Assembly (NCBI GenBank): GCA_023146135.1
Contig: JAGLCR010000010.1
Location: 4,139 to 68,138 of the forward strand
Length of the DNA stretch: 64,000 nt
Source of the DNA: Bacteroidales bacterium
GTDB taxonomy: Bacteria; Bacteroidota; Bacteroidia; Bacteroidales; UBA1556
Direction of reading: 5' to 3'
Made by a program: the position numbers and the translations under genes. Shown piece by piece: positions 19,342 to 34,356 of the stretch. Under the pieces are notes generated by a model. The model ran no database searches and was not told the DNA's origin. It was given only the letters and a program-made list of their open reading frames with translations. The first letter of the stretch is position 1. Every line of letters starts with the position of its first letter.

Positions 19342-19343
19342 TA

Positions 19344-19970
19344 ATGGAAATAATAGGAGTTATAATAGCTGATGATCATATAATATTTCGCAAAGGGTTA
19401 AGAACGGTGCTTAATGAAATATCGTTTGTCAAAGTGCTCGACGAAGCATCAGATGGACAAGATGTATTAAGGGTAATGAAAATAAACCCAGCCGATATTA
19501 TTTTGATGGATATAAATATGCCTGGTATGAATGGTATTGATGCCACAAAAAAAGTAAAAGAAAAGTATCCAGATACCGAGATTATTGCATTGACTATGCA
19601 TGAGGAAATAGGTTATTTTAATAGAATGATAGAAGCAGGAGCAAAAGGTTTTTTGCAAAAAAAAACTACTAAGGATCAGCTAGCTACTGCAATAAAAAAT
19701 GTATTCTATGGTGAAACATACTTCTCCGAAGAATTTGTGATAAGCACACAAAAGAATGTAGATGTAAAAGCTCCATCTATTTCGATAAGCGATAGAGAAA
19801 AAGATGTGTTAAAACTCATTGCTAAGGGTTATTCGAATGTAGAGATTGCTGAAAAACTGCATATTAGCAAACGAACTATTGATGGACATAAGGCAAGGTT
19901 ATTTGATAAAACAGGAGCTAAGAATGCTCCCAACCTGATTATGTTTGCTTTGAAAAATGGACTTATTTAA
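19344..19970 (+). CDS. NarL/LuxR-type response regulator
   Basis: Receiver (ADDH..., ILMDINMPGMNG) plus a C-terminal LuxR HTH (SDREKDVLKLIAKGYSNVEIAEKLHISKRTIDGH). Confidence 0.9.
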   Translation: MEIIGVIIADDHIIFRKGLRTVLNEISFVKVLDEASDGQDVLRVMKINPADIILMDINMPGMNGIDATKKVKEKYPDTEIIALTMHEEIGYFNRMIEAGAKGFLQKKTTKDQLATAIKNVFYGETYFSEEFVISTQKNVDVKAPSISISDREKDVLKLIAKGYSNVEIAEKLHISKRTIDGHKARLFDKTGAKNAPNLIMFALKNGLI

Positions 19971-20425
19971 AAAGGTTTCAATATCATTAAAAGTATGTAC
20001 TATTAATTCTCCTGAATCTTTGATTTCGTAGATATTCTTATCGAGATCATAAACTTAAATTTACTTAAATAAAAAATTTCCTGTCTGCAAAATGATAAAG
20101 AAAACATGATTTTGTGTTATCAATAATTTCATTTGTGCTTTGCCATTTTCAAGCAATTGGTCTAGCCCCCTATAATTCTGTCCTACTTATTAGGGAGCTA
20201 ATACACAATGCAAAATACCTAAGTAAAAAACAATTTCGAAAATCTTAAATATTTCTTATTTATAAATAATAGAAATTCAAGTAATTACATTTATCTGGAT
20301 AAGATAGTCCTGCATGTTTTATTTTGTGTATCCTTAGTGTAATCAGTATGTTACAATATGAGTGTTAGGTATAAATACGCTAAAAAAAAATACATAATAC
20401 TCTACCCCACGTCTCCATGCTCTTC

Positions 20426-20433
20426 TACATTTG
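20426..20433 (+). promoter_or_regulatory. Candidate -7 box (TACATTTG) for the hydrogenase/signalling cluster
   Basis: Exact TAnnTTTG 48 nt upstream of the ATG at 20481, at the end of a 510-bp ORF-free region. Confidence 0.35.
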
Positions 20434-20480
20434 CCGTATAAATATATCGAAATATAGTAATTATAAAAAACTAATAAACC

Positions 20481-20975
20481 ATGAAAGTAACAAAGAAAAT
20501 TTTAATCGTAGATGATGATATCGATGTGATTAATATCGTAGAAACAATTCTTAGAAATGAAGGTTATACAGTTATTTCGGCAGGAAGTAAAGAAGAAGGT
20601 ATTGAATTAGCGAAAAAGCAAAAACCAGATTTAGCAATTTGTGACGTAATGATGTCGACACACTATGAAGGTTTCGAGTTGGCGCGTGAATTTGCAACAA
20701 ACGAATTATTCGAAGAAATGCCTGTTATAATGCAGACTTCAATTAGTGTATTTGCCTCAAAGGATGAAGATTCAATGAGATTTGCAAGATACTATCGTTC
20801 TGAAATGAATAATCATGATTTAGATGTTTTATTGGTTGAAAATACCAGAATAGGAGATGCAGGGATTGACTATAAAGATGAATCAGGAAAGCTGATTTGG
20901 GTTCCAGTGAAAGCCTTCATTAAAAAGCCAGTAAAAGCCAAGGTGCTTATTGCAAACATTGAGAAATTTATTTAA
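20481..20975 (+). CDS. Stand-alone response-regulator receiver with enlarged alpha4-beta5 region
   Basis: IVDDD, phospho-acceptor context PDLAICDVMM, T/S position MQTS and conserved Lys in FIKKP. About 60 aa separate the last two where ~20 is usual. No output domain. Confidence 0.85.
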   Translation: MKVTKKILIVDDDIDVINIVETILRNEGYTVISAGSKEEGIELAKKQKPDLAICDVMMSTHYEGFELAREFATNELFEEMPVIMQTSISVFASKDEDSMRFARYYRSEMNNHDLDVLLVENTRIGDAGIDYKDESGKLIWVPVKAFIKKPVKAKVLIANIEKFI

Positions 20976-21038
20976 GAAATAAGCACAATATAGTTTTAAT
21001 AGAGCTACTTACGAATATTGAAATTACATAAAATTCAG

Positions 21039-21485
21039 ATGAAACAAATCTTTGAGAAATATATACATGCAGGAAGAGATAGCCTAATTCCAATCCTGCA
21101 AGAAGTACAAGAGGAAGATGGCTTTTTGTCAGAAAATGCCATAGTTGAGATAGGGAAATTATTAAATCTACCCGTAAGTAAGATTTATGGTGTTGCTACA
21201 TTTTATAATCAATTTCGATTTCAACCAAAAGGTAAACATCATGTACAAGTATGTAGAGGTACAGCCTGCCATGTTTTGGGTTCTGCAAATGTTCTTCAAG
21301 AGCTTGAGAAGACATTGAAAATAAAAAATGATGAGACTTCTCGCGACGGGAATTTTAGCTTGGAAGTAGTAGCTTGTATAGGTGCATGTGGTTTAGCCCC
21401 AGTTATTTCCATTAATGGCGAATTTCATGCAAAGGTAACCACTGCATCAATTAAAGAAATCATTAACAATTTGAATCAAAAGTAA
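21039..21485 (+). CDS. hydC: [FeFe]-hydrogenase NuoE-like [2Fe-2S] subunit (HydC type)
   Basis: NuoE/thioredoxin-like 2Fe-2S Cys pattern (CRGTACHV ... CIGACGLAP). The ATG at 21039 is preferred over the track's TTG at 21018. Confidence 0.85.
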   Translation: MKQIFEKYIHAGRDSLIPILQEVQEEDGFLSENAIVEIGKLLNLPVSKIYGVATFYNQFRFQPKGKHHVQVCRGTACHVLGSANVLQELEKTLKIKNDETSRDGNFSLEVVACIGACGLAPVISINGEFHAKVTTASIKEIINNLNQK

Positions 21486-23419
21486 TGAATTTGACAAAAC
21501 AATATATAATACAAGAACTATTGTCAAATCCAACTAAGGATTTTTCAAATACGGATATTATTAAGAATCTCAATAGAGAGATTGTTTCAAAACCTGTAAT
21601 ATTTGTTGGTACTGGTACCTGTGGGTTAGGAGCTGGGGCCGACAAAACTCTTAAAGCTGTTATATCATATTTAAATACGGCTCAAATAGATGCAGATATT
21701 ATTGAAACTGGATGCATTGGTCTATGTTCGTCAGAACCATTGATGGATGTGCAATTGCCAGGTCACAATAGGATTTGTTTTGAGAAAGCTACTGCTGATA
21801 AAGTTGTAGGTGTTTTAGATAGTGTTTTTGATAATAAAGATGACACTAAATTAGAAAGTGCTCTTTGTCAATTTCCTTCCAAAGAAAACCACTCTTGGAA
21901 AAATATTTCTAATATAAATGAATTGCCATTTTTCAAACCTCAATTTAGAATTGTACTTAAAAACTGTGGTATTGTAAATCCTATTAGTATTGATGAGTAT
22001 GTGGCAAGTGGAGGATATACCGGTTTTCTACAGCTTATTAAAAGTGAAAATGCCAAAGAAGTATGCAATATAGTTGAGAAAAGTGGATTACGAGGTAGAG
22101 GTGGTGGTGGTTTCCTTACGGGTAAGAAATGGAAATTTGCGTTAAATACACCCGCAAACCAGAAATACCTTATCTGTAATGCCGATGAAGGAGACCCAGG
22201 TGCTTTTATGGATAGAGCTGTAATTGAAGGAGATCCTCACCGACTTATTGAAGGTATGGCAATAGCTGCTTTTGGTATAGGTGCAACTAAATCATATGTT
22301 TATATTAGAGCAGAGTATCCTCTTGCTATCAAGAGACTTAATATAGCATTAGAACAAGCTAAGGAATATGGTATACTGGGTGAAAATGTATTTGGTACAG
22401 GAGTAAATTTTGAAATAAAAGTAAAAACAGGTGCTGGAGCATTTGTTTGTGGTGAAGAAACAGCATTGATAAATAGTATTGAAGGTAAAAGGGGAATGCC
22501 TCGCCCTCGCCCTCCATTTCCTGCTGTAAGTGGATTGTTTGGGAAACCCACTATTATTAATAATGTAGAGTCATTATCTAATCTTCCTTTTATAATAAAA
22601 GAAGGGGATGATAAGTTTGCTGCAATTGGAACAGAAAAAAGTAAAGGGACTAAAGTTTTTGCTCTTTCTGGTAAAATAGCAAAGACTGGGCTTGTTGAAA
22701 TCCCAATGGGTACAAGTGTTAGAGAGGTAGTGTTTGATATTGCAGGAGGGGTTCCTGATAATAAAAAGTTTAAGTCTGTACAAATTGGTGGTCCTTCAGG
22801 AGGTTGTATTACGGAGCAGAACCTTGATATTCCAATAGAATACGAATCGCTTATTGAAGTTGGAGCCATGATGGGCTCCGGAGGTCTTGTGGTAATGGAC
22901 GAGGATACTTGTATGGTGGATGTTGCAAAATTCTTTATGGATTTTATTCAACGTGAAAGCTGTGGTAAATGTATTCCATGCCGCGAAGGAACAAGAAGAA
23001 TGCTTGAAATACTTGAGGATATTACTCATAAACCTAATACAACTAAAAAGCATGAAGCTCTTCGTAGGTTCAAAGGCGTGACACAGCTCGAACGCCTTGG
23101 TAAAGTTATAAAAGAGACTTCTTTGTGTGGCCTTGGGCAAACAGCTCCAAATCCTGTGTTGAGTACAATTAAATGGTTTAGAGAAGAGTATGAGGAGCAT
23201 ATTTTTGAACGTAAGTGCGCGGCAAATGTTTGTACCGAACTAAGAGTGTTTACTATTGATGTTGATATGTGTACTGGATGTACCATTTGTGCCAAAAAAT
23301 GCCCTACTGATGCAATTATTGGAAGCAGAAAAGCACCACATTTTGTTGTCGAAGACAAATGTATCGCTTGTGGAACTTGCTTCGATGTATGTAAATTTGA
23401 TGCTATCACTATTTCTTAA
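21485..23419 (+). CDS. hydB: [FeFe]-hydrogenase NuoF-like flavin/NAD(H) subunit (HydB type)
   Basis: 644 aa: N-terminal 2Fe-2S-like domain, NuoF core (GLRGRGGGGF, SCGKCIPCREG) and two C-terminal ferredoxin motifs (CTGCTICAKKCP, CIACGTCFDVC). Start overlaps the hydC stop. Confidence 0.9.
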   Translation: MNLTKQYIIQELLSNPTKDFSNTDIIKNLNREIVSKPVIFVGTGTCGLGAGADKTLKAVISYLNTAQIDADIIETGCIGLCSSEPLMDVQLPGHNRICFEKATADKVVGVLDSVFDNKDDTKLESALCQFPSKENHSWKNISNINELPFFKPQFRIVLKNCGIVNPISIDEYVASGGYTGFLQLIKSENAKEVCNIVEKSGLRGRGGGGFLTGKKWKFALNTPANQKYLICNADEGDPGAFMDRAVIEGDPHRLIEGMAIAAFGIGATKSYVYIRAEYPLAIKRLNIALEQAKEYGILGENVFGTGVNFEIKVKTGAGAFVCGEETALINSIEGKRGMPRPRPPFPAVSGLFGKPTIINNVESLSNLPFIIKEGDDKFAAIGTEKSKGTKVFALSGKIAKTGLVEIPMGTSVREVVFDIAGGVPDNKKFKSVQIGGPSGGCITEQNLDIPIEYESLIEVGAMMGSGGLVVMDEDTCMVDVAKFFMDFIQRESCGKCIPCREGTRRMLEILEDITHKPNTTKKHEALRRFKGVTQLERLGKVIKETSLCGLGQTAPNPVLSTIKWFREEYEEHIFERKCAANVCTELRVFTIDVDMCTGCTICAKKCPTDAIIGSRKAPHFVVEDKCIACGTCFDVCKFDAITIS

Positions 23420-23430
23420 AGAAACAACAG

Positions 23431-25149
23431 ATGAAAATTACCGTAAATAATAAAATAATAGAAGCTAATAATGGTGAAACCATATTAGATGCTCTGACTC
23501 GTGAAGGAATAAAGGTTCCAACACTTTGCCACTTGAAAAACATGATGCCCACAGGTGCTTGTAGAATGTGTGTAGTCGAGGATGTTGACTCGGGGAAGCT
23601 AGTAACATCATGCTCTTCACCTGTATACGAAGGCTTAGAGGTGAAAACTCATTCGGCTAGAGTAAACGAGTCGAGAAAAACAATTGTAGAACTATTGCTC
23701 TCTAATCATCCAGACGATTGTTTGTATTGCGTTCGAAATGGAAACTGTGAGCTTCAAGGTCTTTCTGAAGAATTATCGATAACAGAACGTCGTATTAGAG
23801 GAAGAAAGAATAAGCAAGCTCTTGATAGATCAAGTTCTAGTATTGTAAGAGACCCTGAGAAGTGTATTTTGTGCGGTCGTTGTGTTAGAATATGTGAAGA
23901 GGTAATGGGTGTTGCTTGTATTGATTTCGTGCAGCGGGGTAATCAAACGGTTGTGGGAACGGCTTTTGATAATGGTCTAAATACTTCTAGTTGTGTAAAT
24001 TGTGGGCAATGTATAATGGTATGCCCTACAGGAGCTTTAACTGAGAAAAACCATTTTGCAGAAATAAAGCAGGCTTTACAAAATCCAAATATTAAAGTAG
24101 CGATTCAGTATGCACCGTCTATTTCTGTTTCCATAGCCGAAGAATTTGGCATGAAACCAGGTATTGATATTAATGGTATTATGAATGCGGCTATTCGTAA
24201 AATAGGTTTTGACTATGTTTTTGATACTACTTTTGGTGCTGACCTTACCATAATGGAAGAATCATCTGAACTTATTGATAGAATAGTTAATAATGGCAAA
24301 CTGCCTCTAATAACGAGCTGTTGCCCAGGATGGGTGAAATATGCAGAGGAATTTGCCCCTGACTTTATTGATAATATTTCATCGTGTAAGTCGCCACAAC
24401 AGATGACAGGAGCGGTTATTAAAAGCTACTTTATTGAAAAAGAGAAAATAAAAACAGAGGACCTGTATTCAGTAGCTATTATGCCATGTACAGCAAAGAA
24501 GTTTGAAGGGCAGAGGGAAGAAATGACTCAAAATGGAATCTCTGATGTTGATGCTGTTCTTACTACACGTGAGTTTGTTAAGCTTATAAAAATGTATGGT
24601 ATTGATATTCATAACCTAAATTCTGAAGTAGCTAACAACCCTTTGGGCTCAAGAACATCGGCCGGTAAACTTTTTGGAACAACTGGTGGTGTTGCTGAGG
24701 CTGCAATTAGAACTGCACATTACAAACTTACTGGCAAAGAATTAATAGAGTTTAAGATAGAAGCTCTTCGGGATTTCAAAAATAGAAAAGAAACTATAAT
24801 TAAAATTGGTGATTTAGAACTAGGGGTTGCAGTTGTAAATGGTTTAGCAAACGCTAAAGAGTTGCTTGATGAAATACGTGCAGGAAGAAATGACATTCAA
24901 TTTATTGAAGTAATGGCTTGTCCTGGTGGTTGCGTTGGTGGCGGTGGTCAGCCCATAAAAATGGATGAAGAAGCAATAAGGATTCGGGCGAAGTCATTGT
25001 ATAGTATTGATGATAAGGAGTCGTTAAAAGCATCGCATAAAAATCCAGATGTTCAGAAATTATATGCTGACTTCCTTGATGAGCCTTTAAGCGAAAAAGC
25101 TCATAAGCTTCTACATACTCATTATCAGAAACGTGAAGTAATAAAATAA
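23431..25149 (+). CDS. hydA: [FeFe]-hydrogenase catalytic subunit
   Basis: 572 aa with an N-terminal 2Fe-2S ferredoxin, HPDDCLYCVRNGNCELQ, and two 4Fe-4S motifs. H-cluster motifs are L1 TSCCPGWV, L2 MPCTAKKFE and L3 EVMACPGGCVGGGGQP. Confidence 0.93.
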   Translation: MKITVNNKIIEANNGETILDALTREGIKVPTLCHLKNMMPTGACRMCVVEDVDSGKLVTSCSSPVYEGLEVKTHSARVNESRKTIVELLLSNHPDDCLYCVRNGNCELQGLSEELSITERRIRGRKNKQALDRSSSSIVRDPEKCILCGRCVRICEEVMGVACIDFVQRGNQTVVGTAFDNGLNTSSCVNCGQCIMVCPTGALTEKNHFAEIKQALQNPNIKVAIQYAPSISVSIAEEFGMKPGIDINGIMNAAIRKIGFDYVFDTTFGADLTIMEESSELIDRIVNNGKLPLITSCCPGWVKYAEEFAPDFIDNISSCKSPQQMTGAVIKSYFIEKEKIKTEDLYSVAIMPCTAKKFEGQREEMTQNGISDVDAVLTTREFVKLIKMYGIDIHNLNSEVANNPLGSRTSAGKLFGTTGGVAEAAIRTAHYKLTGKELIEFKIEALRDFKNRKETIIKIGDLELGVAVVNGLANAKELLDEIRAGRNDIQFIEVMACPGGCVGGGGQPIKMDEEAIRIRAKSLYSIDDKESLKASHKNPDVQKLYADFLDEPLSEKAHKLLHTHYQKREVIK

Positions 25150-25205
25150 GCTGTTTATTAATTCGAAGATTTACAAAGTCAACAACTTAAAAAGACAATA
25201 GTATA

Positions 25206-27185
25206 ATGCATAATTTTTCAAATGATAATCCACTAGTTTATACCGTAAAAGGCTTGTGTCGTGTTTGTTATACTTGCGTGCGTGAATGTCCTGTTAAAGC
25301 TATTAAGATAATTAGTGGTCAAGCAGAGATAATCACAGAAAGGTGTATTGCATGTGGAAACTGTGTAATAGTGTGTAGTCAGGGAGCCAAAACTTATTAT
25401 TCGTCGATTGAAAAAGTGGAGGATATACTTTTGAATAATAAGCAGAAGATATTATGTGTTGCTCCAAGCTTTGCCGCTGAATTTACTGAAATTGAAAATT
25501 ATAGGATTTTTGTGGGGATGGCAAAAGAATTGGGGTTTGATTTAGTTACAGAGGTGTCTTTTGGTGCTGATTTGGTAGCACAGGCTTATAAGAACGTATT
25601 TGAAAATGAGAGTACAAAAACAATAATAACATCGGATTGCCCTGCTATTGTAAATTATATTAAGCAATATCACCCCAATCTGGTTGAATTTCTTGCTCCA
25701 ATCGTTTCACCAGCCATTGCCATTGCAAAGGTTCTTAAGAAGAAGTATAATAATGATGCTCAATTAGTATTTGTAGGCCCTTGCGTGGCAAAGAAAGCAG
25801 AGTCTGAAAGTTTTGATGAGAATCTTACATTTTCTGAGCTTAGACTGATGTTTGAAAAGCACAATATAATTCCAGATAGAGTAACTGCTGCTGATTTTGA
25901 TAAACCAATATCTGGAAAAGGAGCTTTTTTTCCAGTTAATCATGGCTTACTAAAAAGTCTAAATAAGACAGAGGGTTTTGGAAAAGGAGAAGTAATAACT
26001 GCTGAAGGAAAGACAAAGTTTCGAGAAGCAATACAAGAGTTTGAGAATGGTGTTCTAAAGAATCAACATCTTGAATTATTGTGCTGCGATGGATGTATTG
26101 AAGGTCCTGGAATGTCTGTAAAAGGACAAAAGTTGGTTAAAAGGATGAAGATTAGTGAGTATGTGAATAACAAACTTAATAAGCTTGATAATGAAGAATG
26201 GGAGAAAGAAAAAGAGCAATACTCTAAATTGGATTTAACAAGAGAATTTTGTACAAATGACCAAAGATTACCTCAGCCGAATGAATATGAGATAAATAAC
26301 ATTCTTATTTCAATGGGAAAAGTTAAAGATAAAGATATGCTCAACTGCGGTGCTTGTGGATATGAAACATGTAAAGCCTATGCAAGTGCAGTGGTTGAAG
26401 GACTAGCAGAAACAGAAATGTGCTTACCTTATGCTATTGAAAAACTGCATAAGTCCAATGAAGAACTTCATCAATCAAATATGCAATTGTCGGATACCAA
26501 GGTAGCATTAAAACAATCAGAAAAGCTTGCTAGCATGGGGCAGTTGTCAGCAGGAATAGCTCATGAACTTAATAACCCACTTGGTATTATTACTCTTTAT
26601 AGTAGTATTCTCAAAGATGAATTAAATAATAAAAGTGAACTTTTTGAGGATATTGAAATTATAAACGAACAGGCCGAACGTTGTAAAACAATAGTCGAAG
26701 GCCTACTGAATTTTGCTCGAAAAAATAAAGTAACGCTGAAAGAAACTAATATTGTAGAGTTTATAGAAAAAAGCTTCAAATCTTTTGTTAAACCCGATGA
26801 TATTCAAATAGAATTTAACTACGATATTAAGTGTCAGTTGGTGAAATTAGATGTCGAGCAAATGATGCAAGCGATAACTAATATTGAAAAAAATGCGGTT
26901 GAAGCTATGCCAAATGGTGGACTAATTGCTATTAGTATTAATGAAGTTAAAGGTAGTTTTATTATTAAAATATCAGATACAGGTGCAGGTATTGCCAAAG
27001 AAAATTTAGAAAAAATATTTACGCCTTTCTTTACTACTAAAGGTGTTAATAAAGGTACTGGACTTGGATTGCCTCTAGTGTATGGAATTGTAAAAATGCA
27101 TAAGGGAAAGATAAATGTACAATCAAATAATCAGCCTGACAATGGTAGTACAGGTACTACCTTCACTATTACTTTACCAAAGTAA
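25206..27185 (+). CDS. Sensory-type [FeFe]-hydrogenase-like domain fused to histidine kinase (HydS-like kinase)
   Basis: Two Fer4 motifs (C18-C28, C47-C57) and an H-domain paralogue (SFGADL, TSDCPAIV, GPCVAKKAE, ELLCCDGC). These are followed by Cx2Cx4Cx16C (C381-C406), the H-box SAGIAHELNNPL, the N-box NAVEAM and G-boxes DTGAGI / GTGLGL. Confidence 0.88.
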   Translation: MHNFSNDNPLVYTVKGLCRVCYTCVRECPVKAIKIISGQAEIITERCIACGNCVIVCSQGAKTYYSSIEKVEDILLNNKQKILCVAPSFAAEFTEIENYRIFVGMAKELGFDLVTEVSFGADLVAQAYKNVFENESTKTIITSDCPAIVNYIKQYHPNLVEFLAPIVSPAIAIAKVLKKKYNNDAQLVFVGPCVAKKAESESFDENLTFSELRLMFEKHNIIPDRVTAADFDKPISGKGAFFPVNHGLLKSLNKTEGFGKGEVITAEGKTKFREAIQEFENGVLKNQHLELLCCDGCIEGPGMSVKGQKLVKRMKISEYVNNKLNKLDNEEWEKEKEQYSKLDLTREFCTNDQRLPQPNEYEINNILISMGKVKDKDMLNCGACGYETCKAYASAVVEGLAETEMCLPYAIEKLHKSNEELHQSNMQLSDTKVALKQSEKLASMGQLSAGIAHELNNPLGIITLYSSILKDELNNKSELFEDIEIINEQAERCKTIVEGLLNFARKNKVTLKETNIVEFIEKSFKSFVKPDDIQIEFNYDIKCQLVKLDVEQMMQAITNIEKNAVEAMPNGGLIAISINEVKGSFIIKISDTGAGIAKENLEKIFTPFFTTKGVNKGTGLGLPLVYGIVKMHKGKINVQSNNQPDNGSTGTTFTITLPK

Positions 27186-27222
27186 AAAAAATATTGTAAA
27201 ACAAAAAGGTAAAACAAATATT

Positions 27223-27618
27223 ATGGATACTCAAAACAAAACGATACTAATAGTTGACGATGATCAAGATTGTCTTAATCTTGTAAAGTTTCACTGCGAA
27301 CGATTTGGATTTAATACTATTACAGCTGAAAGTCAGAAGGAATGTGAAGAAATAATTGAGACTCAAAAACCTGATCTTGCAATTTTCGATTTGATGATGG
27401 AAAATGATGATAGTGGCTTTATACTGTCTTATAAATTGAAAAAAAAATATCCCGATGTTCCAGTAATTCTTGCCACAGCAGCATCTTCAGTTAGTGGGTA
27501 CATTTTCGAATTGGAGAATGAGACGGACAAAAGTTGGATGAAAGCAGATGTGTTTATGGAGAAAAATATTCGTCCCGATCAACTACATAGGGAGATAAAT
27601 AAACTATTGAAGCTGTAA
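27223..27618 (+). CDS. Stand-alone response-regulator receiver
   Basis: MDTQNKTILIVDDD ... KPDLAIFDLMM, a paralogue of the 20481 receiver. The ATG at 27223 is chosen because the track's start at 27115 overlaps the upstream kinase. Confidence 0.85.
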   Translation: MDTQNKTILIVDDDQDCLNLVKFHCERFGFNTITAESQKECEEIIETQKPDLAIFDLMMENDDSGFILSYKLKKKYPDVPVILATAASSVSGYIFELENETDKSWMKADVFMEKNIRPDQLHREINKLLKL

Positions 27619-27655
27619 GTTGTATTATATTTTATAAGAAGTAATTGAAATAATT

Positions 27656-28768
27656 ATGGAAAAACTAAGAATACTAATCGTTGATGATGAACAAGGCATT
27701 AGAACAGGAATAAGAAGGGGGCTAAGAGGTTTAGTTGTCTCTTTTCCTTTTCACGATGACGATTTTGAATATGATATAATTGATGCCGAAACTGGAGAAG
27801 AGGCTTTGTCAATAATAGAAAATGAGCTTGTTGATATAGTTTTACTTGATAATAAACTGCCAGGAATAGAAGGGATAGAAGTATTAGAGATAATAAAGGA
27901 AAGAAAATACGACTTGTCAGTGATGATGATAACATCTTATGCTTCAATAGAGTTGGCCGTTAAGGCTACTAATAATGGCGCTTTTAATTTTGTCCCAAAG
28001 CCATTTACTAAGCAAGAGCTTACTACTGCAATTGAAAGTATTACTAAGCACTTATTTTTAAAACGAATGACCAGAAAGATGAAAGCAGAAGGAAAAAAAA
28101 TACGATTTCAGTTTCTTTCTGTGCTATCTCACGAACTAAAGTCACCAATAAATACGGTAGAAAGCTATTTGCGAATAATACAAGATAGGCAAGCAGGTGA
28201 CAATATTGATGCTTACGATACTATGGTAAAACGGTCTTTGGATAGATTAGAATCTATGCGAACACTTATTATGGACATGCTTGATTTTACTCGAATAGAG
28301 TCGGGTAGGAAGGCGAGAAATATTACTGATATTGATATAATTGATATTGCCAAAACAGCAATTTATTCCGTTGAAATAGCAGCAAAAGCGAAGGGTATTC
28401 ACATCCTTATGAATTTCCCAAAAACACTTTACCTTAAAGCAGATGCTTCTGATTTTGAAATAATATTCAATAATTTGCTCTCAAATGCAGTAAAGTACAA
28501 TAAGGAGTCTGGGGAAATAATTATTTCAATCAATGAACAAGATAGTCAAATTAAGATTGTAGTTGAGGATACTGGTATTGGAATGAATGTAAAGGAGAAG
28601 TCGCACCTTTTTGAAGAGTTTATGAGAGCTAAAAATGTAAAGACAAGGAATATTTCGGGTACAGGGCTTGGTTTATCAATTATGAAGAAAATAGTTGATC
28701 TTAATAAGGGCTCTATCGAAGTAGAGAGTACTCCCGATATTGGTTCAAAGTTTACTGTGATTATATAA
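27656..28768 (+). CDS. Receiver-histidine kinase hybrid (REC-HisKA-HATPase)
   Basis: N-terminal receiver (ILIVDDE, VLLDNKLPG, FVPKP), H-box LSVLSHELKSPIN, and HATPase motifs (NAVKYN, DTGIGM, GTGLGLSI). Confidence 0.88.
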   Translation: MEKLRILIVDDEQGIRTGIRRGLRGLVVSFPFHDDDFEYDIIDAETGEEALSIIENELVDIVLLDNKLPGIEGIEVLEIIKERKYDLSVMMITSYASIELAVKATNNGAFNFVPKPFTKQELTTAIESITKHLFLKRMTRKMKAEGKKIRFQFLSVLSHELKSPINTVESYLRIIQDRQAGDNIDAYDTMVKRSLDRLESMRTLIMDMLDFTRIESGRKARNITDIDIIDIAKTAIYSVEIAAKAKGIHILMNFPKTLYLKADASDFEIIFNNLLSNAVKYNKESGEIIISINEQDSQIKIVVEDTGIGMNVKEKSHLFEEFMRAKNVKTRNISGTGLGLSIMKKIVDLNKGSIEVESTPDIGSKFTVII

Positions 28769-29137
28769 TTCACCTTTTATAGGAGCGTAAACTCTATTTA
28801 TGTAACAACCTATTCAAGAAGAAGAGGGTGTAGTATAATACAACTTGGCTTTATGCGAAAAGTTTTCTGTAAAATGAGATAGATATTTTGTGCTTTTTCT
28901 CAAATTATGAGGTTTATTCACAAACTTTCGTTGCAGCAATATGAAAATAACTGTACCAAATATAAGTATTAGGTACATGCTAATTTATATATTGCTATCT
29001 TTTGGATTGATAACATATGTCCAAATCAACCTATTGTAATGTTGATTATATTTGGAAGGTGTAGCAATCAGGCAAATAATAAAAGAATAATTTTGCCCTG
29101 ATTTATTTCATAGTTTTGTAGGCATAGGCAATAATCT

Positions 29138-29145
29138 TAAATTTG
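29138..29145 (+). promoter_or_regulatory. Candidate -7 box (TAAATTTG) abutting the TPR-kinase start
   Basis: Exact TAnnTTTG ending 3 nt before the ATG at 29149, at the end of a 374-bp gap. Confidence 0.35.
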
Positions 29146-29148
29146 ATA

Positions 29149-31449
29149 ATGAAGCAATATTTCAAGACTTTAGTATTCATTATTTTTCTTCTAGTTTCAA
29201 TCTCAGAAGTAAAAAGTCAAAGCGATTTAAAACAATCGATCCAGCAAGATATTTCTCGTATTGATAGTCTTATACAAAAAGGTGATTTAGTAAATGCAAA
29301 CTTGCAACTAAAGAAGAGTATAGCAATGTCTCAAAAACATAGATTGCGTCCATTTTTACCTGATCTTTATTGGTTTAAGGGGGGGTTGAAATGTAAAGAA
29401 AAATTGTATAGAGATGCTTTTTCGGCCTATTATAGAGCGTATGCCATAAGTGTGTTGATGGAGGATTCCTTGGATGTTTTCATGTCATTATATCACCTAA
29501 GTAAATTTTATGTCTGCTCAGGCGACACCTTTGATATGAAGCCTTTTTATATTAAGAGCCTTGAGTACCTTAAAGAGGGGCTGCCATTTGTACCAGCAGT
29601 TAATGACTCTTTAAGTCTTGCTAAATATTATTATAAACTGGCTACAGCCTATTCTAGTACGGATGATTGGAACTCTGCAGTGACGTATTATTTAATGTCA
29701 AAAACTATAGCTCAAAATAAAAATAATCAATCATTGACAATTAGTATATTGGATGGTGTTTCTAGATCAAATATTGAGCTAGGGGAATATCCAATAGCAA
29801 TCAATTATTTGAATGAGCTTATACAAATATACCAGTCTCAAGGCGAATCGGATAAGATATTTGATGCTATTATAGAATTGTCTGATAGTTACTATAGTAT
29901 GAGAAAATATAGTGATGCAGTTATTCATTTGAAGTCAATAGTTGACGCAAAGAATGCCCCTCAGGATGCACAACTCCAAGCAATGATTAGACTTGCGAAA
30001 GTAAATATGCAAATAGGAGAGGATGGTCGGGCTGATGCTTTAGAGTATCTTAATGAATCGATTGCTTTGTCCAGGGTGTTAAATGATATAGAATCAGAGG
30101 TATATGCCTTGAATTTATTAGCTGTTTATTATAATATATTAGGTGATTTAATAAATACTGAAAAAGCTAATAAAAAGGCTGTTGAATTACTACTGATAGA
30201 TAAGCATTATAATTCTAAAATGTTGGTGTACAGTATGTCAATTGCTATTTATAAAAAGAAAAAGGATTATAGTAAAGTATCAGAATATCAAGAATTGTAT
30301 ATAGATGCCAATAAGCAGAAAAGTGAAGATGCATATCAGAAATTAAATGTAGAGAAAAAGGAGACTAAGCATCTTGCTAATACGGAAAGCAAACTCATGG
30401 TTGCTATTTTCTTAGAGGCAATTAAGAATCTTAATGATTCAGTTGTAAAGCGTGAAGCAGAAAATCGAGAAACAAAACGAGATCGCAATTACTTATTTGC
30501 GTTTGTAATTATAGGTTTAGTAATTTTAATTATTGTAGTCGTTTTTTATTTTTCCTTGCGAAAGAAAAGTAAAGCTTTGGTAGATAAAAACAATATTATT
30601 ATTAAAGCACACAAAAAAACAGAAGATGTTTTACTAAAGTTGAAGAAAACACAAGCTCAGTTAATAGAGTCGGAGCGGCTGGCTTCACTGGGTGAACTTA
30701 CTGCTGGCATTGCCCACGAGATACGCAATCCACTAAATTTTGTAAATAACTTTTCGAGTCTTAATGTGGAATTATCTGAGGAATTGCAAACTGAAATTGA
30801 TGAGCATATTAAGGATGAAGAATTATTGGAAGATTTGTCTGAAATAACAGATATGATTTCGAATAATAGTAAAAAAATTAATGATCATGGTGAACGTGCT
30901 TCACGTATTATCAAGCAAATGTTGGACTCATCGCGAAAGGGGAGCGATCATTTTGAAGAAACTGAGATTAGCCTTCTAGTTGAAGAAACAGCTAAGCTTG
31001 CTTATCAAGGAGTGAGGGGTAAATATATTAATTTCTCTGCTGATATGGTCTTTGATTTTGATAAACTAGTTGGTAGAAGGAGCGTTGCAGTAGATGGGCT
31101 AGGGAGGGTAATTATTAACCTAGTAACTAACTCATGCCATGCCCTATTGGAAAAGGCTAAAACAGATAAAGAATTTAAACCAAAGTTATTGGTTCAAACT
31201 AAAGATGCTGCTGATTATTTCGATATTATTATTGAGGATAATGGTATTGGTATGAGTGATGATTTGAAAGCAAAAATATTTGATCCCTTTTTTACAACCA
31301 AACCCACAGGTGAAGGTACAGGCTTAGGATTAACAATGAGTTTTGATATTTTAACTAATGTGCATAAAGGTTCAATAATAGTGGAGTCTAAGCTAGGTGA
31401 ATTTACACGTTTTACATTACGAATCCCTAAAAAAAAGAAGAGCATATAA
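29149..31449 (+). CDS. TPR-repeat sensor histidine kinase (signal peptide, ~450-aa extracytoplasmic TPR region, one TM)
   Basis: Signal peptide MKQYFKTLVFIIFLLVSISEVKSQ, TPR-like helical repeats, TM YLFAFVIIGLVILIIVVVFYF, H-box TAGIAHEIRNPLNF, and HATPase motifs (DNGIGM, GTGLGL). The ATG at 29149 is preferred over the TTG at 29143. Confidence 0.85.
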   Translation: MKQYFKTLVFIIFLLVSISEVKSQSDLKQSIQQDISRIDSLIQKGDLVNANLQLKKSIAMSQKHRLRPFLPDLYWFKGGLKCKEKLYRDAFSAYYRAYAISVLMEDSLDVFMSLYHLSKFYVCSGDTFDMKPFYIKSLEYLKEGLPFVPAVNDSLSLAKYYYKLATAYSSTDDWNSAVTYYLMSKTIAQNKNNQSLTISILDGVSRSNIELGEYPIAINYLNELIQIYQSQGESDKIFDAIIELSDSYYSMRKYSDAVIHLKSIVDAKNAPQDAQLQAMIRLAKVNMQIGEDGRADALEYLNESIALSRVLNDIESEVYALNLLAVYYNILGDLINTEKANKKAVELLLIDKHYNSKMLVYSMSIAIYKKKKDYSKVSEYQELYIDANKQKSEDAYQKLNVEKKETKHLANTESKLMVAIFLEAIKNLNDSVVKREAENRETKRDRNYLFAFVIIGLVILIIVVVFYFSLRKKSKALVDKNNIIIKAHKKTEDVLLKLKKTQAQLIESERLASLGELTAGIAHEIRNPLNFVNNFSSLNVELSEELQTEIDEHIKDEELLEDLSEITDMISNNSKKINDHGERASRIIKQMLDSSRKGSDHFEETEISLLVEETAKLAYQGVRGKYINFSADMVFDFDKLVGRRSVAVDGLGRVIINLVTNSCHALLEKAKTDKEFKPKLLVQTKDAADYFDIIIEDNGIGMSDDLKAKIFDPFFTTKPTGEGTGLGLTMSFDILTNVHKGSIIVESKLGEFTRFTLRIPKKKKSI

Positions 31450-31477
31450 ATGCTAACTAAAAAAAATCAGAACGAAA

Positions 31478-32641
31478 ATGAGCGAAGTATTTAAGATATT
31501 ATGTGTAGATGATGAGCCTGATATGGAGATGCTTATTCGTCAAAAGTACCGCAAAGAAATACGAAAGGGAATTTATGATTTCTATTTTGCTTTAGATGGA
31601 GAAAAAGCCCTTGACTTGCTAAACGAGTATAAAGATATCTATTTGGTGCTCTCTGATATTAATATGCCAGTGATGGATGGATTGAGTTTGTTAAATGAAA
31701 TTCAGAAGTTGGAAAAGCCTGAAATGAAAGTAGTAATGGTATCGGCATATGGAGATATGCAAAATATTCGTACTGCCATGAATCGTGGTGCTTTTGATTT
31801 TATCAATAAACCTATTGATTTTGAAGACTTTACCAAAACCATAGAAAAAGCTCATCTTGAGATTAATCGTATTCAAAAGCAAGTTCAAACGGCACATGTT
31901 TTAGAGGTGGTTGAAGATGATTTGTCGGCAGCAGCCAAAATTCAAGATGGCCTATTGCCAAAACTTAGTGGTTTGTTTAAGGCAAATGAGCGATTAAATG
32001 TGGCTAGTTTTATTAAGCCAGCACGTTGGGGTGGTGGCGATTTTTATGATGTATTTGCCATTGACGATAAGCGAATAGGTTTTATTATTGCTGATGTATC
32101 GGGCAAAGGAATTCCTGCCGCTGTATTTATGTACTTAAGCCGCACAACGCTACGTATATATAGTAGTTTATACGAAAATCCCTCAGATGTTCTTTCCGCT
32201 GCCAACGAATACCTTAATGTTGATAATGATAGCTCTATGTTTGTAACCGTTTTTTATGCGGTATTAAATACAGAAACAAATGAGTTTATGTATAGTAATG
32301 CAGGTCACAACCCACCTTACTTAATAAGCAATGGTGAAATATCGGCAATGCCGATTACTAAAAATATGGCGCTTGGTGTAATGCCATCATTACCTTATGC
32401 AGATTTAACTATAAGCCTTAAGTCAGGCGATAAGTTTTTTATGTTTACCGACGGGGTGAGCGAATGCATGAATGAGGCGAATGAAGAGTATGGTGAAGAG
32501 CGAATTGAGCAGTTTTTGAGCGATCATATTAATGAAGATGTAGTTACGCTAGTGGATAAAATGAATAATGTATTGAGTAGGTATCAAGGCAATGCCGAGC
32601 AGCATGATGATATTACGATGCTTAGTTTTCAGTTTGATTAG
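31478..32641 (+). CDS. Response regulator with PP2C/SpoIIE-type Ser/Thr phosphatase output
   Basis: Receiver (LCVDDE, VLSDINMPVMDG, FINKP) followed by PP2C motifs (GGDFYDV, IADVSGKG, FTDGVSE, DDITMLSF). Confidence 0.88.
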   Translation: MSEVFKILCVDDEPDMEMLIRQKYRKEIRKGIYDFYFALDGEKALDLLNEYKDIYLVLSDINMPVMDGLSLLNEIQKLEKPEMKVVMVSAYGDMQNIRTAMNRGAFDFINKPIDFEDFTKTIEKAHLEINRIQKQVQTAHVLEVVEDDLSAAAKIQDGLLPKLSGLFKANERLNVASFIKPARWGGGDFYDVFAIDDKRIGFIIADVSGKGIPAAVFMYLSRTTLRIYSSLYENPSDVLSAANEYLNVDNDSSMFVTVFYAVLNTETNEFMYSNAGHNPPYLISNGEISAMPITKNMALGVMPSLPYADLTISLKSGDKFFMFTDGVSECMNEANEEYGEERIEQFLSDHINEDVVTLVDKMNNVLSRYQGNAEQHDDITMLSFQFD

Positions 32642-32643
32642 TT

Positions 32644-32668
32644 AAAAAATCAGGAAGTGTGATTTTTT
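32644..32668 (+). terminator. Weak A/T hairpin after the phosphatase gene
   Basis: AAAAAATCA / TGATTTTTT is a perfect 9-bp stem with a 7-nt loop starting 3 nt after the stop. It is AU-rich and therefore weak. Confidence 0.35.
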
Positions 32669-32868
32669 AAGGTATTAATCAATCAATAAGCAGCTTTTTT
32701 TTGGTTTGCATTTAAAAAATGATAAAACTAGAAAATGGCACCTTGTGAATAGTGTATAAATGTCTAAAATTCAAATGTATAATAAGTATAAAGAAAACCA
32801 GAATACGGACTTTATAAATATCTATATATTTTAGTTGATAAAACTAATAAATGATAGAAATAAAATCG

Positions 32869-32876
32869 TAAATTTG
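32869..32876 (+). promoter_or_regulatory. Candidate -7 box (TAAATTTG)
   Basis: Exact TAnnTTTG 66 nt upstream of the sucD ATG. Confidence 0.35.
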
Positions 32877-32941
32877 TCACTTCGAAAAATAAACACGTCT
32901 TTTTTAATAAAAGATTAGAACCCCAAATAAAACACATTATT

Positions 32942-33811
32942 ATGAGTGTATTAGTAAATAAAGATTCAAAAGTTATTGTTCAGGGCTTTACCGGAGGTGA
33001 AGGAACATTCCATGCTGGACAAATGATTGATTATGGTACCAATGTAGTTGGTGGAGTAACTCCAGGAAAAGGTGGTCAAGAGCATCTTGGAAAACCTGTT
33101 TTTAATACTGTTAAAGATGCCGTTGATAAAGCACAGGCTGATACTTCAGTTATTTTTGTGCCACCACCATTTGCAGCAGATGCAATAATGGAAGCTGCCG
33201 AGGCAGGTATTAAAGTGATTATTTGTATTACCGAAGGACTTCCTACTAAGGATATGGTTGCGGTTAAAGAATTTTTATCAGATAAAGATTGTCGTTTAGT
33301 TGGACCTAACTGTCCAGGAGTTATTACTCCAGGTGAGGCTAAAGTAGGTATCATGCCAGGATTTATCCATCAAAAAGGTAGAGTAGGTATTGTTTCTCGT
33401 TCAGGAACTTTAACATATGAAGCTGTAGATCAATTGACTAAAATTGGCTTAGGTCAAACAACAGCTATCGGTATTGGTGGTGACCCAATTATTGGAACTA
33501 CCACTCGTGATGCAGTGGAGCTTTTGATGAATGATCCAGAAACTGAAGGAATTGTAATGATTGGTGAGATTGGTGGAAACATGGAGGCTGATGCTGCTTA
33601 TTGGATTAAAGAAAATGGAACAAAGCCTGTAGTGAGTTTTATCGCTGGTGCTACTGCTCCTAAAGGTCGCACAATGGGTCATGCCGGTGCTATCGTTGGT
33701 GGAACTGCTGATACTGCTGAAGCTAAGAAAGAGATTCTTACTGAGTGCGGAGTTCATGTAGTTGATTCTCCAGCTGATTTAGGAACTAAAATGGCTGAGC
33801 TTCTGAAATAA
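32942..33811 (+). CDS. sucD: Succinate--CoA ligase subunit alpha
   Basis: SRSGTLTYE and phosphohistidine loop MGHAGAIV; 289 aa. Confidence 0.93.
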
Positions 33812-33833
33812 GAGTTTAAGAAATATATACTGA

Positions 33834-33868
33834 AAGGTGAATCTATTATGGGTTCACCTTTTTTTTTT
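33834..33868 (+). terminator. Rho-independent terminator of sucD
   Basis: AAGGTGAA / TTCACCTT is an 8-bp stem with an 11-nt loop, running into a T10 tract. Confidence 0.75.
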
Positions 33869-33870
33869 AA

Positions 33871-34278: not shown

Positions 34279-34356
34279 AATATGAACATTTATTGGTTTC
34301 GGTTTCAGCTTACGAATATATGAAAAATACAGCTAATAGTCAAGTCTATTAATAGC

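Follow-up and report, generated by a model that had tools for sequence, protein, structure and literature searches.

The hydrogenase genes of this Bacteroidales contig lie in a conserved cassette at positions 18345–28768 of the window (the whole 64,000-nt stretch of DNA analyzed here), which appears to be a self-contained, horizontally portable unit combining an HydCBA hydrogenase with its own sensing and regulatory genes. We regard the explanation as a whole, comprising the cassette, a sensor, a relay, a NarL-type output and backbone neighbors, as probable, though well short of certain. Synteny across relatives delimits the unit, which is counted as ten genes and runs, on the forward strand, in the order PAS-HisKA_3 kinase, NarL/GerE-type HTH regulator, stand-alone receiver REC1, HydC, HydB, HydA, hydrogenase-like histidine kinase (HydS-HK), second stand-alone receiver REC2 and REC-HisKA-HATPase kinase (REC-HK). 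Its homology to the loci of relatives begins at 18345, and the upstream junction with the backbone is sharp to 1–2 bp (18343/18345). Among close relatives, the ten-gene block is found in four other genomic contexts with different flanks on both sides, and the identities of its proteins to their orthologs co-vary, a signal of co-inheritance. The block itself contains no integrase or transposase genes, and the repeats at its junctions are only chance AT-rich 9-mers. Maturase genes (hydEFG) are absent from the 64,000-nt window, and an Rfam search of the whole window returned no RNA families; the long intergenic regions are therefore not known riboswitches or sRNAs.

The structural genes are hydC (21039–21485), hydB (21485–23419) and hydA (23431–25149), with a 1-bp overlap between the first two and an 11-bp gap between the last two. 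HydC, which probably starts at ATG 21039 (148 aa, following the gene call in a related locus), is a NuoE-like [2Fe-2S] subunit (Pfam 2Fe-2S_thioredx, 6.6e-52). HydB is a NuoF-like FMN/NADH subunit with extra Fe-S domains (Complex1_51K, NADH_4Fe-4S and Fer4), and its best PDB matches are the B subunits of bifurcating enzymes, including those of A. woodii and T. kivui and T. maritima HydB. The catalytic subunit HydA (Fe_hyd_lg_C and SSU domains) carries canonical TSCCP, MPC and MACPGGC motifs; in its translation, ITSCCPGW, IMPCTAKKFE and EVMACPGGCVGGGGQP correspond to the H-cluster signatures L1 (TSCCP), L2 (MPCxxKxxE) and L3 (ExMACxxGCxxGGGQP). Its NCBIfam score for NF040763 is 790 (cut-off 765), and its best PDB matches (8a6t, 7q4v and 7p5h) are each a bifurcating HydA. 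Judged by these family and motif matches, HydA is a group A3 [FeFe] hydrogenase (‘A6’, NADH-dependent, in NCBIfam). NuoF-like HydB and NuoE-like HydC share one operon, as expected of HydABC enzymes, and HydCBA is predicted to be an electron-bifurcating or confurcating [FeFe] hydrogenase.

The next gene encodes HydS-HK (25206–27185), in which Pfam analysis and motif inspection revealed an N-terminal 2x[4Fe-4S] domain (PF04060 match), an H-domain (TSDCP, GPC and ELLCCDGC), a Cx2Cx4Cx16C motif, a helical linker, and HisKA (His453) and HATPase domains. We compared 82 orthologs from more than 10 phyla. The H-cluster ligands C300, C355, C499 and C503 occur in 82/82 sequences, and K358, E361, the eight N-terminal cysteines and C381, C384, C389 and C406 are likewise invariant. 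The same is true of His453, N563, DxGxG (591–595), FTPFFTTK and GxGxG (617–621), which together represent the H-box histidine and the N, G1, F and G2 boxes of a class I HisKA kinase. While the four ligand cysteines are kept, Cys299 and the Met353/Met497 pair are gone, as expected of HydS: the proton-relay position 299 is D, T, S, N or A but never Cys (Asp in the window's protein), Met353 is replaced by Gly in all 82 sequences and Met497 by Leu in 81. No Pfam match was found in HydS-HK for a C-terminal PAS domain of the M2f/TmHydS type, and HisKA and HATPase stand there instead. By NCBIfam, the kinase core is AtoS/ZraS-like; such kinases usually partner NtrC-type regulators. An AF2 monomer model shows confident H- and ATPase domains and a helix (407–472) between the last cysteine and the DHp; the linker and DHp (409–469) fall below pLDDT 50, so that the model gives weak support to a continuous signaling helix. 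A PDB sequence search yielded no HydS-type structure for comparison.

By these motif features, HydS-HK matches the putative sensory [FeFe] group C of HydDB, whose members (C1 ‘histidine kinase-linked’ and C3 ‘phosphatase-linked’; TmHydS, R. albus HydS and HfsB) are proposed sensors (PMC5037454, PMC8163306). Both share the N-terminal 2x[4Fe-4S] domain, the four H-domain cysteine ligands and the C-terminal Cx2Cx4Cx16C motif (PMC8163306, PMC5037454), lack Cys299, and share an operon with a group A hydrogenase; Met353 is Gly as in TmHydS (PMC8163306). HydS-HK differs from these proteins in having no PAS domain, with its transmitter fused directly after the Fe-S motif, in the Asp at position 299 of the window's protein, in the Met497 to Leu exchange, which recalls the group D enzyme TamHydS, and in lacking a conserved PP2C or Ser/Thr kinase partner. 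PMC11406978 reports that best matches to HydDB C3 carry a His-kinase domain and that C1 members carry HATPase_c. HydS-HK is a putative H2 sensor kinase whose sensor looks functional, and the cytoplasmic H2/redox-sensing role that the initial annotation gave to the H-domain kinase is plausible in light of the invariant H-cluster ligands and kinase motifs.

The position of the HydS-HK gene directly after hydA (HydCBA lies upstream of HydS-HK in 57/64 loci) and its complete H-cluster site could also indicate that the protein acts chiefly as a fourth HydABC subunit, structural or catalytic (‘BfuT’), with the kinase and receivers acting post-translationally, for example through binding of REC1/REC2 to HydABC, rather than on transcription. 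Asp at position 299, present in 47/82 sequences, fits such a role; to our knowledge, no residue other than Asp is known to support proton transfer in group A enzymes when it replaces Cys299. PMC11406978 also treats the protein as subunit T, and the core module described below lacks an output domain in most phyla. We nonetheless consider this reading improbable: the exchanges at Met353 and Met497, together with loss of the rest of the proton pathway, resemble the slow sensory enzymes TmHydS and TamHydS (PMC8163306), the invariant kinase boxes argue for signaling, and lineage-specific transcription factors recur beside the module (NarL-type here, NtrC-type in two other loci).

The putative sensor kinase is part of a six-gene core, HydCBA, HydS-HK, REC and REC-HK, that recurs in more than 10 phyla (79 genome loci). 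A small REC follows HydS-HK in most loci, and in 69 of 72 REC-HK is encoded at a distance of up to 2.5 kb on the downstream side of HydS-HK. In the window, the former is REC2 (27223–27618, 131 aa), which comes immediately after HydS-HK and whose start at ATG 27223 leaves it without overlap with the kinase gene, and the latter (27656–28768) is a receiver-regulated second kinase of a PhoR/PnpS-like subfamily (Pfam, NCBIfam) and the last cassette gene. REC1 (20481–20975, 164 aa) opens the hydrogenase transcription unit and is a paralog of REC2, its best match (41% identity). It carries an approximately 45-aa insertion after beta-4, retains the DD, D57, T/S87 and K109 equivalents, and is conserved upstream of HydC in one Bacteroidota sub-lineage; another Bacteroidota variant has a second, divergently encoded HydS-like gene in the place of REC1. 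When aligned with CheY, each of the five receivers has the acidic pair, Asp57, Thr/Ser87 and Lys109 positions expected of phosphorylatable receivers. In most phyla the six-gene core is found without NarL, and the nearby output in other phyla is NtrC-type (two loci), a REC-Ser/Thr kinase (locus L071) or a REC-formate channel. Since these outputs vary among phyla, the core has no fixed output.

Downstream of the cassette, on the same strand, lie genes for a TPR-HisKA-HATPase kinase (TPR-HK, 29149–31449) and a REC-SpoIIE/PP2C phosphatase (REC-PP2C, 31478–32641). The initial annotation joined them with the genes from 20481 onward into one branched phosphorelay (20481–32641), in which H2 and an envelope cue would lead to dephosphorylation by REC-PP2C without a transcription factor. 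Much of its description is borne out by the ORF list, Pfam and the translations, including nine same-strand ORFs with the domains it named, hydrogenase structural genes amid several kinases and receivers, and the H-boxes quoted for the H-domain and TPR kinases. The last two genes are not syntenic with the conserved hydrogenase block, however. In two relatives without hydrogenase genes (L091 and L092), the backbone reads LemA-TPM-TPM-LGT-TPR-HK-REC-PP2C-SucD, with positional orthologs of the TPR kinase directly after LGT, followed by REC-PP2C homologs of 67–70% identity. The two genes are also paired in L093 (REC-PP2C, 49% identity), and none of the REC-PP2C homologs in L091–L093 is near hydrogenase genes. 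These relatives were reached by a REC-PP2C search and contig look-ups; a metagenome scan with the TPR kinase gave weak kinase-core matches only and no orthologs. Of the 79 HydS-HK loci, none contains TPR-HK and only two have any PP2C gene within 10 kb, arguing against the adjacency typical of phosphatase-linked (HydDB C3/hfs-type) loci.

The TPR kinase comprises a signal peptide (3–23), a periplasmic TPR region and a TM segment (447–470), and, like REC-HK, aligns with all kinase boxes. Its H-box resembles that of HydS-HK, to which it is 37% identical over the kinase core, because both belong to the AtoS/ZraS-like subfamily. This likeness had been taken as a sign of common receivers, but the TPR-kinase H-box is identical in L091–L093, that is, in genomes without HydS-HK or a hydrogenase neighbor. 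The cassette and the pair are further split by a spacer of 380 bp (28769–29148; the previous figure of 374 bp, ending at 29142, is corrected by placing the TPR-kinase start at ATG 29149), which has no homolog in any locus fetched and contains four TAnnTTTG −7-like boxes of its own (29047–29145) and a hairpin (29066–29103). We searched the spacer for a 5′ remnant of the TPR-kinase gene and found none; the gene is complete, with a sensor domain that evolves fast (22–23% identity). REC-PP2C has the REC and SpoIIE/PP2C domains of partner-switching RsbU/RssB-like proteins, and its best NCBIfam match, Pseudomonas-type RssB, is below the cut-off; no STAS-domain or anti-sigma substrate is encoded adjacent to it, the next genes being SucD, a DUF772 fragment and Omp85, so any substrate would be encoded at another site. 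The TPR kinase and REC-PP2C belong to the genomic backbone as an envelope-sensing pair of their own; they adjoin the cassette only as a result of its insertion between LGT and the pair. The REC-Ser/Thr kinase that follows the core in L071 makes an output by protein phosphorylation conceivable in principle; a nine-gene relay ending in REC-PP2C is nevertheless disfavored by synteny, as well as by the co-inherited HTH regulator upstream, and we consider it very unlikely indeed. Adjacency in one genome implied such a relay, whereas synteny points to two unrelated modules joined by insertion.

The statement that the region lacks an HTH domain holds within 20481–32641, but a syntenic REC-GerE regulator of the NarL/LuxR family (19344–19970; Response_reg and GerE) is encoded 510 bp upstream on the same strand. 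It follows, after a 2-bp gap, the first cassette gene (18349–19341; PAS_9, HisKA_3 and HATPase_c), an arrangement characteristic of NarL/LuxR-type pairs. This PAS kinase is cytoplasmic, its gene begins with a 20-bp overlap with the end of LGT, and its orthologs (48–79% identity) occupy the same position in eight loci. An NreB-like Fe-S PAS oxygen sensor was ruled out, since the PAS region (aa 1–120) has only C34 and C88. The best NCBIfam matches of the regulator are of the MctR, UvrY and NarL types. Its orthologs (62–86% identity) lie alongside the hyd block, and at least 21 contigs, matched by exact size, carry both a NarL homolog and HydS-HK. The link was also seen in two of three further loci checked; four loci have a REC1-type block without the NarL pair in their flanks, and one ortholog of the regulator is an orphan. 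We infer that the co-inherited NarL-type regulator is the DNA-binding output of the cassette in this Bacteroidales lineage.

HisKA_3 kinases normally pair with NarL-family regulators, so the regulator may answer to the PAS kinase only and not to HydS-HK. The cassette would then have two independent inputs, with PAS-HisKA_3/NarL controlling transcription by a non-H2 cytoplasmic signal and HydS-HK/REC/REC-HK serving an unlinked regulator or non-transcriptional targets. The different subfamilies of HydS-HK (AtoS/ZraS-like) and REC-HK (PhoR-like) and the lack of NarL beside the core in most phyla are consistent with this arrangement. We judge it unlikely, however, as the two modules are co-inherited, with divergence co-varying down to about 55% identity, move together between contexts, and the block encodes no other output domain.

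The preferred reading, a NarL-type output of the cassette, is consistent with the 510-bp control region upstream of REC1 (19971–20480), which we scanned for motifs and −7 boxes. It contains a half-site, AAAATACCTAA (20212–20222), and a degenerate palindrome, GGTATAAATACG (20368–20379), with one mismatch to GGTR-N4-YACC, followed downstream by a Bacteroidota-type −7 box, TACATTTG (20426–20433). Among NarL-bearing loci, GGTR-N4-YACC occurs nine times in 12 orthologous intergenic regions (6.5 kb) versus 76 times in 1.67 Mb elsewhere, an approximately 30-fold enrichment upstream of the operon (Poisson 4e-11), and it was recovered in two held-out loci. A perfect 14-bp palindrome, AGGTR-N3-5-YACCT, was dropped for this core because the held-out loci had one-base variants at the outer positions. 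GGTR-N4-YACC is therefore a candidate operator of the cassette. Scans for sigma-70 promoters and terminators gave counts near shuffled expectation in this AT-rich Bacteroidota genome; promoters were scored by the TAnnTTTG −7 motif instead, which provides consensus-level evidence only.

We propose that HydS-HK is a group-C-type sensory hydrogenase in which a histidine-kinase transmitter replaces the usual C-terminal PAS domain. Reaction of H2 at its slow, proton-relay-deficient H-cluster would determine the redox state of its accessory Fe-S clusters. One of these, the Cx2Cx4Cx16C cluster, precedes the phospho-accepting His453 by about 47 residues, with one helical linker in between, and the redox state of the clusters would switch the balance between autokinase and phosphatase activities. 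From the invariant adjacency of the genes, the phosphoryl group would pass from HydS-HK to REC2 and/or the receiver of REC-HK, a presumed second-tier kinase, with REC1 as a possible further acceptor or sink. The NarL regulator, fed by this relay or in parallel by its own PAS-HisKA_3 kinase, would bind GGTR-N4-YACC approximately 50–110 bp upstream of the REC1-hydCBA promoter and thereby tune hydrogenase expression to H2 and redox state. A broader reading, which is possible but which we hold only tentatively, is that the HydS-HK/REC/REC-kinase trio constitutes a universal H2-gated two-tier cascade plugging into lineage-specific outputs, here as a complete transferable H2-responsive switch with GGTR-N4-YACC as its operator; the cassette would then correspond, among [FeFe] systems, to HoxBC-HoxJ-HoxA, with a single polypeptide carrying both sensor and kinase.

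The [NiFe] regulatory hydrogenase system sets hydrogenase transcription via a histidine kinase and a response regulator. The logic of these group 2b systems (HoxBC-HoxJ-HoxA/HupUV-HupT-HupR), in which a slow hydrogenase senses H2 for a kinase and regulator, is the same (PMC5037454), but metal center and fold are unrelated to HydS-HK, the sensor is in complex with a kinase that is a protein of its own, and the cassette includes two kinases as well as three additional receivers. The Firmicutes hfsABCD and R. albus hydS-hydA2 clusters also encode a HydS-type protein beside the hydrogenase thought to be regulated (PMC11837493). They combine PAS-HydS with a serine phosphatase (HfsC), whereas the PP2C in the window is a coincidental neighbor and the cassette would signal by His-Asp phosphotransfer. 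The bacteriophytochrome-ExsF-ExsG system is a trio of sensor histidine kinase, stand-alone REC and REC-HisKA-HATPase protein, with ExsG of the HWE type; its three-gene wiring resembles HydS-HK/REC2/REC-HK with a different input domain.

The layout of hydCBA with a kinase-fused sensor is already known in silico, and the window is a further example. The available sections of PMC11406978 describe ‘BfuT’ sub-type V (in silico, 2024), bfuCBA with a group C3 hydrogenase carrying a histidine-kinase domain, in Hydrogenedentota, Caldithrix abyssi and some Bacteroidota, phyla that four of our loci also represent. Hence, the earlier remark that no characterized Bacteroidota example is known must be qualified: the layout has been reported there in silico for cultured members. 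The gene order (hydC-hydB-hydA-sensor kinase) is the same; those sections treat BfuT as a subunit and do not use the term ‘response regulator’. What the cassette adds to the BfuT description given there is a REC and a REC-kinase conserved downstream of the sensor, the NarL pair at the upstream end, REC1 and a candidate operator.

We know of no HydS-type protein that has been demonstrated experimentally to signal. The fusion of a HydS domain to a histidine kinase allows signaling to be assayed in a single protein, by comparing autophosphorylation in the presence and absence of H2, and for HydS signaling the cassette points to specific receivers, one transcription factor and a candidate operator. 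PMC11406978 reports the kinase-fused sensor with hydCBA in cultured Bacteroidota (Perlabentimonas, Tenuifilum and Williamwhitmania). The occurrence of this layout in cultured Bacteroidota and in many phyla of anaerobes means that the outcome would bear on how fermenters set H2 production against H2 partial pressure.

For this uncultured Bacteroidales bacterium, the ORF listing and Pfam searches bear out the nine same-strand genes and the domains reported in the initial annotation: the stand-alone receiver REC1 (20481-20975); HydC, a thioredoxin-like 2Fe-2S protein whose start is most likely ATG 21039 (corrected); NuoF-like HydB; HydA, with an H-domain and a small-subunit domain; the 659-aa HydS-HK (25206-27185), which combines a pair of ferredoxin-type 4Fe-4S motifs with an [FeFe]-hydrogenase H-domain, the Fe-S motif PF04060 and the HisKA and HATPase domains; a second stand-alone receiver, REC2; the REC-HisKA-HATPase kinase REC-HK (27656-28768); a TPR-HisKA-HATPase kinase with a signal peptide; and a REC-SpoIIE/PP2C protein (31478-32641). 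The start of REC2 was corrected to ATG 27223, so that it does not overlap the HydS-HK kinase, and that of the TPR kinase to ATG 29149, so that the long gap measures 380 bp. A PAS-HisKA_3 kinase (18349-19341) and, after it, a NarL-family REC-GerE regulator (19344-19970) are encoded directly 5' of the nine genes on this strand; the reported absence of an HTH domain thus holds only within 20481-32641. HydA carries canonical motifs (TSCCP, MPCTAKKFE, MACPGGCVGGGGQP) and exceeds the NCBIfam cut-off for 'NADH-dependent [FeFe] hydrogenase, group A6', and the best matches of HydA and HydB are the structurally solved bifurcating HydABC enzymes. Each of the five receivers has the acidic pair together with Asp57, Thr/Ser87 and Lys109. 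REC1 and REC2 are mutual best matches (41% identity) with an insertion after beta-4 in both; in REC1 and its orthologues this is a conserved stretch of about 45 residues between beta-4 and beta-5, and it is shorter in the paralogue REC2.

Using the HydS-HK alignment to query one genome per species, we found relatives in about 564 stretches and compared the best 80 loci, whose ORFs were labelled by domain queries drawn from the window. These best 80 of about 564 loci belong to Bacteroidota, Hydrogenedentota, Planctomycetota, Myxococcota, Desulfobacterota, Calditrichota, Fibrobacterota, Acidobacteriota, Verrucomicrobiota, Spirochaetota, Thermoleophilia and Melainabacteria, and the order HydC-HydB-HydA-[HydS-HK]-REC-[REC-HK] recurs in the best loci. 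Within a 79-locus set, HydC, HydB and HydA lie upstream of HydS-HK in 57 of 64 loci, and a REC-kinase follows within 2.5 kb downstream in 69 of the 72 with enough flank. The closest relatives (70-81% HydS-HK identity) all carry a PAS-HisKA_3 kinase, a NarL-type regulator, a 365-1000 bp gap, a REC of 164-166 aa, HydC, HydB, HydA, HydS-HK, a 130-aa REC and REC-HK. The flanks of this block differ on both sides among them, with LGT, ResB/CcsA, a TonB-type receptor or rhodaneses at the 5' end and unrelated genes at the 3' end. Across loci, the identities of all block proteins drop together (NarL regulator from 86% to 62%, PAS kinase from 79% to 48%, HydS-HK from 81% to 54%), which indicates co-inheritance. 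In one cassette variant, L094, a START-domain gene (9371-9967) separates the PAS kinase from the NarL regulator, and a radical-SAM/BATS gene resembling the maturases HydE/HydG (19223-20633) comes directly 3' of REC-HK; the window contains no maturase gene.

Homologues of REC-PP2C with 67-70% identity occur in two metagenomic contigs, L091 and L092, in the order LemA, TPM, TPM, LGT, TPR-kinase, REC-PP2C, SucD and, on the minus strand, DUF772, Omp85 and UDG. This order agrees with the window flanks at 15265-18368 and 29149-36804, and blastn alignments of both contigs to the window are colinear over 13036-18343 and 30637-40553. Homology to this backbone ends at 18343, and homology to the PAS-kinase start of other cassettes begins at 18345. 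LGT and the TPR kinase are -4 or +12 bp apart in the two contigs; in the window they are separated by the 10.4-kb cassette and the 380-bp spacer, of which no homologue was found among the loci compared. The window TPR kinase is intact, with a kinase half 61-65% identical to its orthologues in both contigs. The same pairing of TPR kinase and REC-PP2C, again with no hydrogenase genes nearby, recurs in L093, which is more distant (49% identity). The most parsimonious reading of these alignments is that the cassette was inserted into an LGT/TPR-kinase/REC-PP2C backbone; neither repeats nor a recombinase were found at its junctions. The initial annotation had joined all nine genes in one branched phosphorelay ending in PP2C. 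Such boundaries are not supported, since the TPR-kinase/REC-PP2C pair is a backbone feature that occurs without hydrogenase genes in L091-L093; nor is PP2C as the end point, given that any PP2C lies near only two of the 79 HydS-HK loci and a TPR kinase near none.

The resemblance between the H-boxes of HydS-HK and the TPR kinase had also been read as a hint that the two could share receivers. It says nothing on that point: L091 and L092 have the window's TPR-kinase H-box unchanged and L093 departs from it at a single residue (E to Q), and no HydS-HK is nearby in any of the three. The two kinases share an NCBIfam subfamily (AtoS, ZraS, VirA-like, CckA), REC-HK is PhoR/PnpS-like, and the kinase core of HydS-HK is 37% identical to that of the TPR kinase and 27% to that of REC-HK; the H-box similarity is therefore of subfamily level.

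Several other features of the window deserve mention. The periplasmic TPR region (29149-30480) is only 22-23% identical to that of L091 and L092, an input domain evolving unusually fast. A DUF772 transposase fragment of 135 aa (33871-34278, minus strand) occupies the same position in both contigs (132-133 aa) and is therefore an old retained remnant, not a recent insertion. Within 1-8000, minus-strand genes (173-5676), including ParB (3293-4189) and ParA (4189-4989), give way to the plus strand from 6390, and GC skew changes sign with a cumulative minimum near 6 kb; the chromosomal origin of replication may lie here. Citrate-lyase genes at 41024-43837, encoding a fused ACP (CitD-like) and CitE-like beta subunit of 408 aa and then CitF, would fit a fermentative lifestyle.

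The H-cluster motifs of HydS-HK read TSDCP, GPCVAKKAE and ELLCCDGC. Residue conservation was scored over 82 aligned family members, of which 81-82 retain the four Cys that ligate the H-cluster, K358, E361, the eight N-terminal Cys, all four Cys of the Cx2Cx4Cx16C motif, the phospho-accepting His453 and the N/G1/G2 boxes. Met353 is replaced by Gly in all 82 and Met497 by Leu in 81, and the position of the proton-relay Cys299 never holds Cys (Asp in 47, Thr in 20, Ser in 11, Asn and Ala in 2 each). Such substitutions typify TmHydS and TamHydS, the slow 'sensory' enzymes (PMC8163306); unlike these, HydS-HK has no PAS domain, and its transmitter directly follows the Fe-S part. The last cluster Cys, C406, and His453 are 47 residues apart, and an AF2 monomer model predicts, at low confidence, helices over 407-472.

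Contrary to the earlier proposal that the system has no DNA-binding output, the co-inherited NarL-type HTH regulator is, judged by its conserved neighbourhood, part of the cassette. REC-GerE genes accompany eight of the 79 HydS-HK loci. Among 52 NarL homologues (at least 62% identity, contigs of at least 10 kb), at least 21 lie on contigs identical in length to one bearing a HydS-HK match and were taken as sharing it. Three unmatched homologues were examined: those of L094 and L095 belong to a full block, and that of L096 is an orphan. The intergenic regions between the regulator and REC1 contain a core palindrome, GGTR-N4-YACC, with nine matches in 12 regions (6.5 kb) against 76 in 1.67 Mb elsewhere, an enrichment of about 30-fold (Poisson about 4e-11). 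L086 and L023 have perfect copies. L094 and L095, both fetched after the motif had been defined, also carry it, and no perfect palindrome was found upstream of REC1 in loci that have REC1 without the NarL pair. The window has a one-mismatch copy, GGTATAAATACG (20368-20379), at -113, nearly the position of that in its closest relative, L083 (-110), together with an upstream half-site, AAAATACCTAA (20212-20222), and a Bacteroidota-type -7 box, TACATTTG (20426-20433). We infer that the palindrome is a candidate operator bound by the NarL regulator. In other phyla, NtrC-type sigma-54 activators lie nearby (L048, L051), and the core seems to serve for sensing and relay, coupling to effectors that vary with the lineage. 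A Myxococcota MAG (L048) encodes, 15 bp upstream of HydS-HK, a REC fused to a PF01226 formate/nitrite transporter (8667-9959), apparently a channel gated by phosphorylation inside a hydrogen-sensor cluster. In a Verrucomicrobiota MAG, a REC-eukaryotic-type Ser/Thr protein kinase (L071:14177-15535) directly follows HydS-HK, REC, REC-HK and REC; protein-phosphorylation outputs thus do occur with the HydS-HK module in some phyla.

We propose that H2 at the HydS H-cluster would set the redox state of the accessory clusters and thereby alter the autokinase or phosphatase activity of HydS-HK, which would pass phosphoryl groups to REC2 and/or the receiver of REC-HK, a second-tier kinase. REC1, co-produced with the hydrogenase, could serve as a sink or provide feedback. 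The state would be read out in this lineage by the NarL regulator, at the candidate operator 5' of REC1-hydCBA, with input from the relay, its own PAS kinase or both. Least secure is the link from HisKA-type kinases to a NarL-type regulator. The usual partners of such regulators are HisKA_3 kinases, so two parallel inputs stand as a serious, if rather unlikely, rival.

HydDB divides [FeFe] group C into C1, 'histidine kinase-linked (putative)', chemotactic C2 and phosphatase-linked C3 (PMC5037454). Where C1 systems have been described, an adjacent gene encodes the kinase (PMC8542988, PMC6163223, PMC7768429); in HydS-HK it is fused. A 2024 Hydrogenedentota survey reported group C proteins with HATPase_c or His-kinase domains adjoining bfuCBA ('BfuT', sub-type V) and found this layout in Caldithrix abyssi as well; three cultured Bacteroidota, of the genera Tenuifilum (T. 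thalassicum), Perlabentimonas (P. gracilis) and Williamwhitmania (W. taraxaci), share it but have another bfuT upstream (PMC11406978). The window's lineage has REC1 in place of the second HydS-like gene seen in many Bacteroidota loci. This divergently encoded gene lies 5' of hydC in L010 (3775-5724, minus strand), L039 (3533-5410, minus), L020 (3366-5258, minus) and about 20 other Bacteroidota loci, adjoined in some by an extra HydC; it encodes 625-650 aa with 2x[4Fe-4S], an H-domain and a PF04060 motif, and Pfam gave no match to its last ~200 aa. A further rival reading, in which 'BfuT', here HydS-HK, is a subunit with post-translational control, seems less probable still than parallel inputs. 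Firmicutes hfs/HydS systems pair PAS-HydS with a serine phosphatase (PMC11837493), an adjacency that defines them and has no conserved counterpart for HydS-HK. The nearest functional analogue of the cassette is the [NiFe] HoxBC-HoxJ-HoxA sensor.

By its gene content, then, the system is of a known kind, described earlier in silico. The analysis adds to it a conserved extension by REC and REC-kinase, a NarL pair inherited with the rest, a candidate operator and evidence of portability. To a hydrogenase specialist it will be unsurprising, yet it offers a clean system in which to test whether HydS proteins signal.
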